Shown: piece by piece, positions 74-59,315 of the stretch
How positions within the stretch are numbered: the stretch's first letter is position 1
Layout of the letters: each line of letters begins with the position of its first letter
Position numbers and translations under genes: made by a program
The notes under the pieces: model-generated
Told to the model about the DNA's origin: nothing
Databases searched by the model: none
Seen by the model: the letters and a program-made list of their open reading frames with translations, nothing else
DNA from: Octopus vulgaris
Taxonomy: Eukaryota
Reading direction: 5' to 3'
Length of the DNA stretch: 64,000 bases
Assembly (NCBI GenBank): GCA_951406725.2
Contig: OX597832.1
Location: 60,140,001 to 60,204,000, forward strand

Positions 74-330
74 ATATTCTGTTGCGTCTGGGCAGAGTCA
101 TTCTCTTTTAGTGCCTTATAATTTAACACACTCACCGTAAAATTTCCACTTATTTCTTTTCTATTTTTCTAAAATTGTCAATAGCTTTGACTCAAAAGTA
201 TTGAAAAGGTTGCAAGACGCAACGAAAATTTAGAAAAATAAAGACGGAAATGAGTGGAAATTTCACCGGTGAGTGTGTTAAATTATAAGGCCCTAAAAGA
301 GAATGACTCTCCCCAGGCACAAGAGTATAT
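74..330 (+). mobile_element. Foldback element (imperfect arms ~74-175 / ~224-330) with HHR-like centre; Penelope-like pseudo-LTR remnant
   Basis: agagtcattctcttttagtgccttataatttaacacactcaccg is reverse-complemented in cggtgagtgtgttaaattataaggccctaaaagagaatgactct; centre TTGAAAA-G-GTTGC-aagac-GCAAC-GAAA; abuts (TA/CA)n. Confidence 0.6.
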
Positions 331-3380: not shown

Positions 3381-3584
3381 GAGTAAACAAGAGACAGAAA
3401 CAGGCAGAAAGAAGGAGAATGCCACTTGCATTTGAATACCATGCAAATATTCTTTTAAGAAAACTTTCTTTTAATTTTTTTCAAAATTTAATTGTTTCCA
3501 TACTTACAGTTGAAAAATTATCAATGACTGAAACCGGAACTGAAATTTTTTTTATAAAATTACTTTAGCATTATCTACCTTTTT

Positions 3585-3587
<3 letters not shown>
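3378..3587 (+). mobile_element. (TA)n-flanked insert of the same family as 37610-37790, with decayed HHR-like core
   Basis: cagTTGAAAAattatcaatgactGAAAccggaactgaaat..ttttataaaatta.tttagcatt.tcta matches 37700-37770. Confidence 0.65.
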
Positions 3588-3625
<38 letters not shown>

Positions 3626-15346: not shown

Positions 15347-16083
15347 TAAGCAATTAAGGGTTTAGCAACGAATTGCCTTACCGCACACCGAATTTAGAAA
15401 TAGCAGTCAAAGAGATTATAGCTATTTCTTCTACTAAAAGGGAGATCTCAGTAAAAACACAGCATTTGAAAGGCAAACACAAACAGGTAAGAGAGAATGA
15501 ATTAACGGCAATCTATCATACAGTTTTAAGTCACCTACGGACGTACGTTTCGAGATCAAGTCTTAGGAAAGCATAAGAATTAGATAATTCTACCTTACCC
15601 ATACTTCTTCTCTCATCAGCGCAGGATACAAACAATCATGAATGATTGTATATTGAATTTTGAGATACTAGAAGGCACCAACTCAACTCAGTATCAGAGC
15701 GAGCTAGAAGCCACAGCTAGTATCACCAAATTCAAAGTGTGAATGAAAGTTTGTGTCACCAGTCTTTTCCCACCCGCGTGTAGCCAAGACAAAGTGCTGT
15801 GGTCATTTACTGGGATGAATATGGTTATCAGTAACAATGAAGGGTGAAATTAATTAATTTGGAATAATTATCAATTACACCAAGTAGTCTTCGGCATGTA
15901 AAAGCCTCATTCGAGGAAAATTTAAGTAATACTAAGCAATTAAGGGTTTAGCAACGAATTGCCTTACCGCACACCGAATTTAGAAATAGCAGTCAAAGAG
16001 ATTATAGCTATTTCTTCTACTAAAAGGGAGATCTCAGTAAAAACACAGCATTTGAAAGGCAAACACAAACAGGTAAGAGAGAA

Positions 16084-16491: not shown

Positions 16492-17123
16492 ATACATGCC
16501 TCACGCTAAGAGGGACATCAGTCATTTCTACCAAAAAATCATACCCAATGCAATTTTTCAAAGCAAGACATTTAAAAAAATGAATTTAGTCTTGTATCAC
16601 CTGTGATTTCGCACTTACCGCAGAGTTGCGACCATGCTCATCAGCAAGACTGATTCTGAACATATCATAAATAAACGACCAGTACCGTCAAAGTCGAACA
16701 GCCATCTGCTCTATTCCAACGAAGCACATGGAGAAGCTTACATATCATACATCCGGTAAATGGCGGGCTTCTTCGAATTGCATTTCGGGTAGGAAAAGTT
16801 TTTTCGGAATAAATTTAACAATTAAGGATAACTTCTTAATAAGGAATCTTAACAAGAAATTATCAGGTAGATAGCGTGAAAGACCTCATAAGAGAAAAAT
16901 TTCGAAAATAATTCTTTCTTATTGAACATATTAATTTATATATAGAGGGCATTATTATACATACATGCCTCATGTATGTATAATAATGCCCTCTATATAT
17001 AAATTAATATGTTCAATAAGAAAGAATTATTTTCGAAATTTTTCTCTTATGAGGTCTTTCACGCTATCTACCTGATAATTTCTTGTTAAGATTCCTTATT
17101 AAGAAGTTATCCTTAATTGTTAA

Positions 17124-17129
<6 letters not shown>
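16492..17129 (-). mobile_element. Retrozyme / Penelope-pLTR-like element: 469-nt unit, 12-nt redundancy, 159-bp perfect inverted repeat, inserted in (TA)n
   Basis: atacatgcctca at 16492 and 16961; arms 16809-16967 and 16971-17129 with 3-nt spacer; (TA)n on both flanks; canonical HHR inside. Confidence 0.8.
16588..16651 (-). ncRNA. Canonical type I hammerhead ribozyme
   Basis: Minus strand AGTCTTG-CTGATGA-GCAT-ggtcgcaactctgcggtaa-GTGC-GAAA-TCA-cagg-TGA-TA^CAAGACT; stem I 7 bp perfect; AUA triplet, cleavage between 16595/16594. Confidence 0.9.
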
Positions 17130-33035: not shown

Positions 33036-33838
33036 ACTAAACTCATATTCGCTCTACAGTCAAGCAGATATGCTTGTAAGGAGAATTGTATAAAGACTGG
33101 TTTTTCGATAAAATATGAAGAATTAACCTCATTAATATTGAGGTATTTAGTTTATATTTTTCACCTTTTGTATTTTATTTCAATATTTTGTCTCGATATT
33201 AACTAATCGGCAGATATTAAATAATCGATAGATACCGCATAATCAATATTTAATTTGATTTTAAAGACGTATAAAGTCTGTCTATATTTTTCCCCTACTC
33301 GTGGCTGTTAATATTATAGTGTTAATTTACGGCTGCGACTATATATGATAAATATTAATTTGTATTCAAGCATACACCTTAGGTTGAGATATTTAATAAA
33401 TTGTTTTTTAAAAAATAATAATAACGAGCATTTCAAGATCAAAAACATAACGGCCATTATGTCTTTATTAACATATATATGTATTGTATTACATTAATTA
33501 ATATACTTTAATATACGTATTGTATGTTTAAAAATCAATATTTTTTTATTATTTTGACCAGTTGTATCTTCTACCACTTTCATGCAGCACCGAGTCTGAT
33601 TTGATTAATAAAATCTTCGCTGTTCATGGTCTTCAACCAAATTCTTTGATTCTGTTGTATGGTAAAATATTGAAGTGAATGTTGTTTTGAACTGACAGCT
33701 CAAAGGGCATACGTTCAAATTTCTAACTGATATTTCGTTGGGTGTGTATTAGAAAATTGCCATTCTCTCAGCCGGTTACAAGTTTATTCGTCATCTTATT
33801 GTTACTGTTATTTATTTTATGTTTCCTTTTATCATTTT

Positions 33839-34050
33839 CAGCGTGGAAGGTGTTTATAAGCTATTTAAAACACACACAAAAATCGTTAGATTCACTTCAA
33901 CATTTAAATTTAATTTGCCAAAATATTTTCGTCTGTGAACAAGTCGCGGTCTCAAAGCGACGAAAATATTTTGGCAAATTAAATTTAAATGTTGAAGTGA
34001 ATCTAACGATTTTTGTGTTTTTAAATGGCTTATAAACACCTTCCACGCTG
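33839..34050 (+). mobile_element. Foldback element (~93-bp arms) with G3-C8 HHR-like centre
   Basis: Arms 33839-33933 / 33959-34050; centre gtct-GTGAACA-A-GTCGC-ggtctcaaa-GCGAC-GAAA-ATAT-TT-tggc. Confidence 0.7.
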
Positions 34051-35758
34051 CAATTGTTTTTGTTCTAGCACACGATCTCAGATCATGTCACTTGCTGTGC
34101 AAGTGCATCTCCATTATCATTTTCGTTTTCTTTATATTCTGTTTTCTTTCATTTAATTTGATATTTTGAAAACTATGCGGAATATTTGAACTTGAAAGAA
34201 AACGAATTAAAAATATAACGACTATGTAAGATATACATACGATATACACTTTTATATTTTTCTTAGTTCATCCACTAAATTCATTTGCGAATGTTATCCG
34301 TCTCTGTTTAACATACTTTTCTGGAAATAAACTTCTTCCCATCTATTTAATACAATAAAACTGGAATTAAGTTCTTTAACTTAGGAAACCGTTTTCTGAT
34401 AGAGATTTGATTAAACACCACCATCACAGCATTGTTTTCGCATCCAAATAAAAGAGTCCTTCTTTTGCGGGGCTGTTTTAATTGGACATGATACTCGCCG
34501 TTATCTTCTATCCAGGGTCAGAGTTATTTCACGTCTTGTAGCACAGGCATGGACAAAATGCTTCAGAATTTTAATTCGCGATAATAAAGCAGTCTGTCAT
34601 TTTGGGTAAATGCTTTCTAAAATAAATTCAGAATCATCCTCGAGTCTTGCGAGTGAAAATTATTTGACAGAAACTGTGTTGAAGCCCATCAGGTAGATTG
34701 GACATGTAATTCAAAAGGCTCAGTTTTGTGATATATAAAATCACGCTAATTCTATCTCAGAATGTTTCCTTTTTAATTAGTAATGAAACAGAAATATGAG
34801 AAATTATTCCAAATCAAAATAATATAAAAATTTCTGGGAGTCCAAAAAGAATTTGACCTTCTTTTCCTCGACTGTAAAAAAAAAAGGGTGTTGTTTAAGT
34901 TATCGTCTGTTAAATGTATTGTAATAACATCTGCTAAAAATAATAGAGATAGGAGTAAGAGAATCGAAGTAATTCTTATTAGAGATCATGCAAATGGAGC
35001 CAAATGATAAGAAATATGTCTACGGAATACACAACCACTTTAACGTAAATTTAACGAATTGTTATATTAACTTGTTCACTAGACCCAATAACGAAAGACT
35101 CATCGTCGAAACCGACGGAGAACCCATCAAATTTCACATCTGTTTATGACTTCTGAGACATCCACTGTAAAAGAACCAACGGCCATTTGGAATCTTCCAG
35201 AGAAAAGAGGAAGGAGAAAAAAAACATTTAAAAAAAACAAACTAAAGGATTAGCGCATCTTGACAAGAGACAAACTGCAGTACTTGCTGACAGAACACAA
35301 ACCGCAGCAAGTCATTTAATACGAACCTGTGACCCTTCAGTTAATAGGCTGACCCTCTTAGCAACTCGACCAGCTGCGACGCTGCTTTCCATGTCATATA
35401 GAAAGAATATTCAAAACAATGGTAATTACGTGTCGTACAAGAGTTTTATATCGTAGTTCTTCAAGGTATAGCGTTGTTCTCTATGACAAACTTATATGGC
35501 TGCCTTGACTGTTTGATGACGGACATTTTTATTCCTTTTGTTTTTTAGCATATATCTTTTATACAATCTATTGATATGTAAGGTTGCGTATACATATGTC
35601 TGTGTGTGTGTGTGTATGTGTGTATGTATACATATGTAAAATGCATGCGTGTGTACGCACGCTCACGCGCACACATATGCATGCGCACATACACACACAC
35701 ATATGTACTTGTCAATGTTGATGTGTGCATATGGGGCGTTTCTTCTACAAAGTTGTTT

Positions 35759-37582: not shown

Positions 37583-37609
37583 AGGTTGAAAAGGAGCGCA
37601 TGAGTTGAT

Positions 37610-37786
37610 ATATATGGAAAAGAAAGTCAAGGTAGAAAATGCTGAAATAATTTTATAAAAACCATTTCACTACCGGTTTCGGTTATTGAGACATTTATAC
37701 AGTTGAAAAAGTCCCAATGACTGAAACCGGTACTGAAATGTTTTTTATAAAATTATTTTAGCATTTTCTATCCTGACTTGTTTTTC

Positions 37787-37790
<4 letters not shown>
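37610..37790 (+). mobile_element. Foldback element (~80-bp arms) with U3-A8 minimal HHR-like centre, in (TA)n
   Basis: CATTT-ata-CAG-TTGAAAA-AGTC-ccaat-GACT-GAAA-CCGG-TA^CTG-AAATG at 37692-37740; arms tagaaaatgctgaaataattttataaaaa / tttttataaaattattttagcattttcta. Confidence 0.75.
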
Positions 37791-37846
<56 letters not shown>

Positions 37847-59096: not shown

Positions 59097-59315
59097 TATA
59101 AAAGATCGTGGATAGGGCGAAACAATGCGAAATAAACGCAAGGTAAAAAATCACACGCACATCGGTAACATTCGTCAATTTCTTGAGGATGGGGTCATAA
59201 CCCCGAAATATTGAATACAAGGTAAATCTGCATTCATTCATATATTTGTTTTTTTTTTTGTGATTTACCTTGCATTTACTTCGCATTGTTTTGGCCTTAT
59301 CCACGATCATTTATA
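59097..59315 (+). mobile_element. Foldback element with minimal HHR-like centre, in (TA)n
   Basis: Arms gatcgtggatagggcgaaacaatgcgaaataaacgcaaggtaaa / tttaccttgcatttacttcgcattgttttggccttatccacgatc; TTC-TTGAGGA-T-GGGGT-cata-ACCCC-GAAA-TA-TT-GAA at 59180-59215. Confidence 0.7.

Follow-up and report, generated by a model that had tools for sequence, protein, structure and literature searches.

A G3-C8 form of the minimal type I hammerhead motif in the pseudo-LTRs of an octopus Penelope-like element

The DNA analysed here, the window, is a 64,000-nucleotide stretch of the Octopus vulgaris genome in which positions 33839-34112 are an inverted pair of 5'-truncated pLTRs (pseudo-LTRs) from a Penelope-like element (PLE). 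We call the PLE family of this insertion family A and its sisters families B and C; the family A consensus lacks the canonical C3 and G8 of the minimal type I hammerhead and has G3 and C8 instead. We are highly confident of the element's identity and of a conserved hammerhead fold taken jointly. The fuller reading, in which this inverted-pLTR insertion belongs to a family whose G3-C8 minimal type I hammerhead would be a slow, dimer- and protein-dependent self-cutter in intact elements, we consider likely, with appreciable doubt; measurable cleavage by the intact G3-C8 motif is predicted at only a little better than even. Neither the element nor the ribozyme is of a new kind, and the window hairpin is a short, folded-back PLE scrap that is probably inactive. 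The features concerned are as follows.

33829-33839, forward strand: left copy of the 11-bp target-site duplication, its last base common to the arm
33839-33933, reverse strand: inverted 5'-truncated pLTR, a short arm without tail that starts in stem II, lacks the 5' half of the core and has the end common to the family
33935-33941, forward strand: hammerhead core, positions 3-9, with G3 and C8, from the letters and the family consensus
33942, forward strand: unpaired base 9/10.1, A here and G in 114 of 121 retrieved copies
33943-33961, forward strand: stem II of 5 bp (G10.1-C11.1) with a 9-nt loop, the part varying most among subfamilies
33962-33971, forward strand: GAAA, palindromic spacer, U16.1 and U17; predicted cut 33971/33972, stem III being possible only between two copies
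33972-33978, forward strand: 3' strand of stem I; the inversion junction has removed the 5' strand that natively pairs with it
33979-34050, forward strand: remaining forward pLTR, which pairs with the left arm
34025-34112, forward strand: PLE ORF start codon and first ~29 codons, in the frame that enters the RT-GIY-YIG ORF in locus L218
34051-34112, forward strand: forward-arm extension including the PLE tail, ~57 nt past the usual short-arm end
34114-34124, forward strand: right copy of the target-site duplication, matching 33829-33839
74-330, no strand assigned: foldback of sister family C, with a U3-A8 core at 201-207; stems I and III have decayed in this copy
37608-37795, no strand assigned: foldback from a different repeat family, whose U3-A8 minimal hammerhead lies at 37703; no ORF link in the sequence retrieved

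Direct reading of the letters places the core GTGAACA at 33935-33941, corresponding to hammerhead positions 3-9 with G3 and C8, followed by A 33942 as the unpaired base between A9 and G10.1, by a stem II in which 33943-33947 pairs with 33957-33961, and by GAAA (33962-33965), ATAT, T16.1 (33970) and T17 (33971). A sequence-only reading of the window had described this swapped core, stem II, GAAA, ATAT and U-U, and each was confirmed letter by letter. It had also set the motif exactly between arms of ~93 bp; the arms do measure 95 nt on the left (33839-33933) and 92 nt on the right (33959-34050), with one mismatch and one 3-nt indel, but the 3' half of the motif (the end of stem II, GAAA, the cut site and the 3' strand of stem I) is itself the start of the right arm, which lies in stem II, and it pairs with the left arm, its reverse complement. 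The short stem I proposed there, GTC/GGC with a U.U mismatch, is a junction artefact, since its 5' strand derives from the inverted arm. Nor does the element end at 34050: the insertion extends as a tail to 34112, and an 11-bp target duplication (33829-33839 / 34114-34124) frames it. Folding of 33839-34112 gave probabilities of at most 0.02 for stem II, 0.0 for the proposed stem I and 0.82-1.0 for the arm pairs, and the window copy is predicted to be sequestered in its own hairpin rather than folded as a hammerhead.

Further repeats were noticed in the window. A second, decayed copy of the 37703 family occupies 3505-3595. On the reverse strand at 15619 stands a canonical C3-G8 type I hammerhead with a 6-bp stem I, a long loop II and an 8-nt palindrome, of which there is one more copy in L079, and 16809-17129 is a near-perfect inverted repeat, 159 bp long around a 3-nt loop, that carries no hammerhead motif. 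The minimal hammerhead at 59183 belongs to a further repeat family and is U3-G8 there and U3-A8 in L084 and L192, with a weak endonuclease match immediately upstream in L084; a relative of this family in L015 is C3-G8. A 3.4-kb tandem in L192, considered as a full PLE, turned out to be a duplication of mixed repeats.

Family A is present in the genome in thousands of short copies. A 20-mer from the element's 3' end has 6,448 exact genome matches (control 20-mer, 0); the window element used as query in the 2.8-Gb genome gave 1,092 candidates, 40 of which were scored, and 1 Mb of unselected DNA held 7 family A segments. Their 3' ends fall at two fixed points, ~57 nt apart, and (TA)n often comes next. 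Among 50 copies chosen by the tail 20-mer alone, 33 are foldbacks and 17 single, and the starts of their 83 arms spread from -24 to +112 relative to position 3, so that the motif's place at the centre of the foldback, noted in the sequence-only reading, is variable. Twenty-nine of the arms begin at -24 to -20 (the reference sequence itself ended at -24), and only 4 begin at 5 nt or less from +37, where the cut is predicted. A duplicated flanking word accompanies 26 of 27 scored foldbacks, a raw count without shuffle control in which nine are simple repeats; the duplications are ~9-14 bp and variable in length. EN+ PLEs are recognized by pLTRs in partial tandem or in inverted, 5'-truncated form, with an optional tail and a target-site duplication of variable length, and family A conforms to this. 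One copy (L036:1500-1680, read by eye) lies with a ~10-bp duplication inside the apparent RT region of another PLE.

Native upstream DNA is retained in 476 family A copies. In these, a TATA-like run stands 30 nt ahead of a common 5' end that looks, with its branch point, pyrimidines and AG, like a 3' splice site as well. An extra G precedes this end in 7 of 13 copies, two of them duplicates (e.g., L390-L397), as fits an RT copying the mRNA cap. On the strength of the TATA spacing and the extra G, we prefer a transcription start over a 3' splice site as the family A 5' boundary. The idea of a short, non-autonomous element having a 5' end of its own was dropped in view of the 476 copies with native upstream sequence and the link to an ORF; upstream DNA of L046, tried as shared sequence, had just 1 match.

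ORFs with RT and GIY-YIG were found upstream of family A copies with native 5' DNA, and in 25 larger loci scanned, G3-C8 motifs lie ~1 kb downstream of the RT-GIY-YIG ORF in sense orientation or in an inverted 5' pLTR (L193-L195, L217-L220, L224-L226, L228 and L233-L236). Within the same 25 loci the descriptor found no G3-C8 motif in L227 or L229-L232: the B-type pLTR of L227 is a separate insertion, L230 has no pLTR in the stretch retrieved, L231 is G3-G8 in both of its pLTRs, L232 has a deletion at G3, and in L229, as in L332, a family C hammerhead is tied to that family's own ORF. The pLTR, tail and ORF are contiguous in L218, where the reading frame begins at a Met within the pLTR (34025 in the window). 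The 999-aa ORF of L217 has its GIY-YIG domain at residues 890-980, over the Pfam cut-off, together with a CX2-5CxxC linker and the CCHH motif as defined for Neptune/Nematis-type elements in PMC8557442. Pfam gave no RT family match on family A's own ORF, and the RT call draws on direct inspection of its motifs and on similarity to a family whose RVT_1 match is below threshold. The host is an EN+ PLE in which RT and GIY-YIG, the latter C-terminal, are linked to the repeat. Because its endonuclease is C-terminal, the N-terminal GIY-YIG of Naiad/Chlamys PLEs being absent, it belongs among the PLE clades known to carry hammerheads and lies outside Naiad/Chlamys, for which hammerheads are reported absent. 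By domain features it appears Neptune/Nematis-like, the tree comprising only copies from the same genome. No relatives of the family A ORF were found in metagenome contigs.

The swapped core is that of the family and not of the window copy alone. With eight core and bulge places left free, 2,218 exact matches were found; among the 100 listed, counted by eye, 82 equal the consensus, 97 have G3, 93 have C8, 90 have both and none is C3-G8. A further 121 copies were retrieved by anchors, a sample biased to intact copies, with G3 in 118, C8 in 110 and G in place of C8 in 5; in this anchor-biased set U4, G5, A6, A9, G12, A13, A14, A15.1, U16.1 and H17 were each kept in 113-121 copies. Intact copies, and not the window copy, possess both stems I and II, with a stem I of 7 bp closed by A2.1-U1.1; one place in this stem is A in 103 and G in 17 of the 121, either of which pairs with U, and loop II takes two main forms. 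Watson-Crick pairing is possible at 3-8 in family A as in family C and the 37703 family.

Folding of the intact copy in L220 yields a probability of 1.0 for stem II and 0.64-0.89 for stem I, with G3 pairing with U17 at 0.6. The stem III palindrome is present; the 6-bp dimer stem is all A-U at -0.2 kcal/mol, and an out-of-register 10-bp duplex that uses core bases is stabler at -3.8 kcal/mol. That standard searches would miss the swap, as the sequence-only reading had supposed, agrees with Rfam results: no hammerhead family appeared in 49 matches at E≤10 for an intact copy or among the 150 listed of 441 matches for the window. The G3-G8 state of both L231 pLTRs and the five G8 copies indicate that a broken 3-8 pair did not block insertion. 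Four sequencing runs (four organism labels) contained no variant at ≥8% at G3 or C8, a result with no bearing on expression.

To examine positions 3 and 8 across families, we applied a descriptor with both places free to an unselected sample of 100 evenly spaced 10-kb stretches (1,000,000 bases). Its 11 matches comprise 4 C-G, 4 U-A, 1 G-C and 2 A-G, the last two lying in ATG repeats and included in the count. Forty local shuffles of the sample averaged 1.4 matches with a maximum of 4; 9 of the 11 real matches have a Watson-Crick pair at 3-8, a number that no shuffle brought above 2, and the pooled shuffles gave 55 matches, 18 of them complementary. The excess over shuffled sequence that the co-variation argument of the sequence-only reading called for is therefore present. 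In the 1.93 Mb retrieved (overlapping loci included), 145 matches form 14 clusters; all 6 multi-member clusters have a Watson-Crick majority at 3-8, and 4 of 8 singletons are not complementary. These counts support 3-8 complementarity across families beyond chance.

The sister families extend this comparison. Family B is 55% and family C 54% identical to family A in protein, and B and C are 61-63% identical to each other. Family B is C3-G8, with C at position 9 in 4 of 4 copies seen, which suggests that these cores tolerate change. Family C (window 74-330) is U3-A8 in 94 of the 100 listed among 2,534 matches, counted by eye, and has one stem II pair swapped too; the 37703 family is likewise U3-A8 in 94 of the 100 listed among 625 matches, also by eye, so that the U3-A8 cores noticed at 201 and 37703 are family consensus in both cases. 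Families A, B and C share A2.1-U1.1, the bulged G, a stem II starting with GU, and U16.1-U17. Three 3-8 states in three families require at least two double changes under any root, and since the sole outgroup in the tree of copies is very distant we claim no order for them. Outside the motif, likeness of the pLTRs is not significant between A and B (83/500 shuffles) and modest between A and C (8/500). For a test of conservation we used blastn alone to collect 7 pLTRs from older subfamilies, whose ORF DNA is 74-87% identical to that of L220: identical places number 88/91 in the core, 187/196 in the stems, 726/827 in the other pLTR and 34/56 in loop II, with a nominal p of 0.003 that is overstated because the seven are related, not independent. 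Based on these comparisons, it is likely that 3-8 pairing has been kept by selection.

Other families with related motifs were encountered in the retrieved loci. A young, distant PLE family of 781 aa (L243-L266, L347 and L349) is U3-A8, its subfamilies differing at position 17 (A or U). A very young sister PLE family with C9 in its hammerhead and many identical matches (L222:5803-6500, L221 and L223) has intact ORFs of ~1,310 aa with a long Asn-rich insert. A short repeat family with a U3-A8 hammerhead (L225:7063-7647, L105, L100, L357 and L200) has copies ~360 bp apart on both strands; no ORF link was found for it at these loci, and it is possibly a retrozyme.

In the element the order is pLTR start, motif, start codon, tail and ORF. 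We propose that the RNA starts ~24 nt upstream of G3, which would place the motif in the 5' UTR between the cap and the start codon. Two motifs, from the 5' and 3' pLTRs of one RNA or from two RNAs, would pair through the palindrome, and a cut after U17 would detach the ORF from its cap, damping the element, or would trim RNA that reads through. For most insertions the template would be uncut RNA. A foldback could arise when the two nicked strands of the target each prime cDNA synthesis, with a pair of internal positions close to the beginning of the ORF as start sites. Each cDNA would reach the 5' end of the RNA or extend in its direction, and the two would then be fused in head-to-head orientation, in the window copy possibly by microhomology of a few bases. 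The mechanism described for the PAc Poseidon element of Anolis (PMC11167929), where RT has two internal start sites and both strands of the target are extended, agrees with the pair of 3' ends, with the head-to-head foldback and with the lack of cut-site ends. A published alternative for pLTR inversion invokes self-priming, with an antisense strand as template (PMC3846280).

Several observations count against activity: the weak dimer stem, the competing duplex, the G3-U17 pairing, the G3-G8 state of L231, C9 in family B and the small number of arms that start near the predicted cut. A minority reading, which we hold to be fairly unlikely, takes the motif for a hammerhead descendant that has lost its cutting activity, with stems I and II and the 3-8 pair retained because the PLE protein or translation needs them for binding or folding. 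The weak dimer stem and competing pairings, C9 in sister B and copy ends that are not piled up at the cut site all agree with this, as does PAc, whose insertion in vitro had no need of cleavage and gave no reads ending at the cut site (PMC11167929). Yet PAc cuts with its protein though likewise without cut-site reads (PMC11167929), the places kept in family A are the catalytic ones (G5, G12, A13, A14, U16.1 and a non-G 17) while loop II drifts, and the active fold features 3-8 pairing (PMC8495972). That G3-C8 might be two chance substitutions in a dead motif hitch-hiking with an active master element is quite improbable: a single origin would suffice for all copies, G3-G8 copies occur and the conservation test has 7 related pLTRs as its basis, but Watson-Crick pairing at 3-8 prevails in 6 of 6 multi-copy families and the remaining core is intact across subfamilies 13-26% apart in ORF DNA.

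As to the foldback itself, its near-perfect 92-bp arms and short copies in thousands would suit a DNA transposon resembling MITEs, or palindromic ribozyme elements forming a class not seen before. This is very improbable, as the arms stop at fixed but unequal 3' positions and vary in their inner junctions, single copies make up 17 of 50, the duplications of ~9-14 bp are not of fixed length, and the same sequence is the pLTR of an RT-GIY-YIG ORF, a linkage by which we ruled the candidate out. A non-LTR retrozyme, which consists of head-to-tail tandem hammerhead units, was rejected too, the window locus and the 50 tail-chosen copies being inverted or single. The hidden class of minimal hammerheads in foldbacks that the sequence-only reading had put forward is not supported: the foldbacks are the published inverted-pLTR form (PMC8557442, PMC3846280) and the motifs the published PLE minimal hammerheads (PMC4209133, PMC3088659).

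What distinguishes family A is the state of its 3-8 pair. In the literature G3-C8 is an engineered mutant: the C3G/G8C double mutant of the PAc hammerhead is partly active (PMC11167929), which bears out, in a PLE hammerhead, the partial compensatory rescue cited in the sequence-only reading. A natural G3-C8 was not found in the literature searched, including the alignment in PMC4209133 and section 8 of PMC3088659; the largest survey of PLE hammerhead variants (Lunse et al. 2017) may contain it. In viral contigs a narrow G3-C8 pattern matched 18 times against 37 for a G3-G8 control, and 1 against 2 when stems were included, showing no enrichment. Maintained in a thriving element, a naturally occurring G3-C8 core would stand as the evolutionary counterpart of the classic compensatory mutant, and sister families with C-G, U-A and G-C at 3-8 offer a ready series to test the catalytic needs of PLE hammerheads. 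A definite blind spot of searches is exposed too, as 5 of the 9 complementary matches in the 1-Mb sample are not C3-G8 and the Naiad core search used a fixed 'cuganga' (PMC8557442). A wider proposal, possible but doubtful, is that PLE 5'-UTR hammerheads freely exchange Watson-Crick types at 3-8, G3-C8 included, and remain active as slow, protein-assisted switches severing their own mRNA cap, a large share of which fixed-CUGANGA searches would have missed, perhaps also in PLE clades reported without hammerheads.

The closest relatives of the motif are the minimal type I hammerheads of metazoan PLE pLTRs (reported by Cervera and de la Pena in 2014; PMC4209133), which are slow and cut only as dimers. 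For these, the presence of minimal hammerheads in pLTRs, U17 and opposite-strand pairs is in print (PMC4209133), as are the U3-A8 variant and the 9/10.1 bulge (PMC4209133; PMC3088659). Family A resembles them in its pLTR place, U-rich 5' flank, unpaired base at 9/10.1, G10.1-C11.1 and palindromic stem III, as well as in U17 (~24 of their 56) and nearby opposite-strand motifs, and the U3-A8 variant of family C and the 37703 family is also found among them; family A differs in G3-C8, the 7-bp stem I and a bulge that is mostly G. Their 56 aligned examples comprise 53 C3-G8, 2 U3-A8, 1 U3-G8 and 0 G3-C8. The natural core variants of Perreault et al. 2011 (PMC3088659) likewise display 3-8 co-variation with U3-A8, whereas a natural G3-C8 was not found in the text available.

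At the level of the element, family A is similar to PAc (Frangieh et al. 2024, PMC11167929) in having a hammerhead at the pLTR-ORF junction, two fixed 3' ends (the tail) and AT-rich targets. In PAc the main template is uncut RNA and the hammerhead cuts only with the PLE protein (PMC11167929). PAc is, however, C3-G8 with its ORF start in stem II, while the family A start codon comes ~90 nt after G3, and the family A ORF has the CX2-5CxxC linker that Penelope/Poseidon lack. The layout of an inverted 5'-truncated pLTR, tail and TSD, with the first codons in pLTR and tail, has been described for PLEs (PMC3846280; PMC8557442). Neptune/Nematis-type EN+ PLEs (Craig et al. 2021, PMC8557442; Arkhipova et al. 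2013, PMC3846280) differ from family A in a tail of 30-40 nt against ~57 and in the usual DKG where family A has DKS; with them family A shares the C-terminal GIY-YIG, CCHH, CX2-5CxxC and (TA)n bias, together with the head-to-head inverted 5'-truncated pLTR, the tail, a TSD reported there as 8-10 bp, and TATA and Inr-like motifs.
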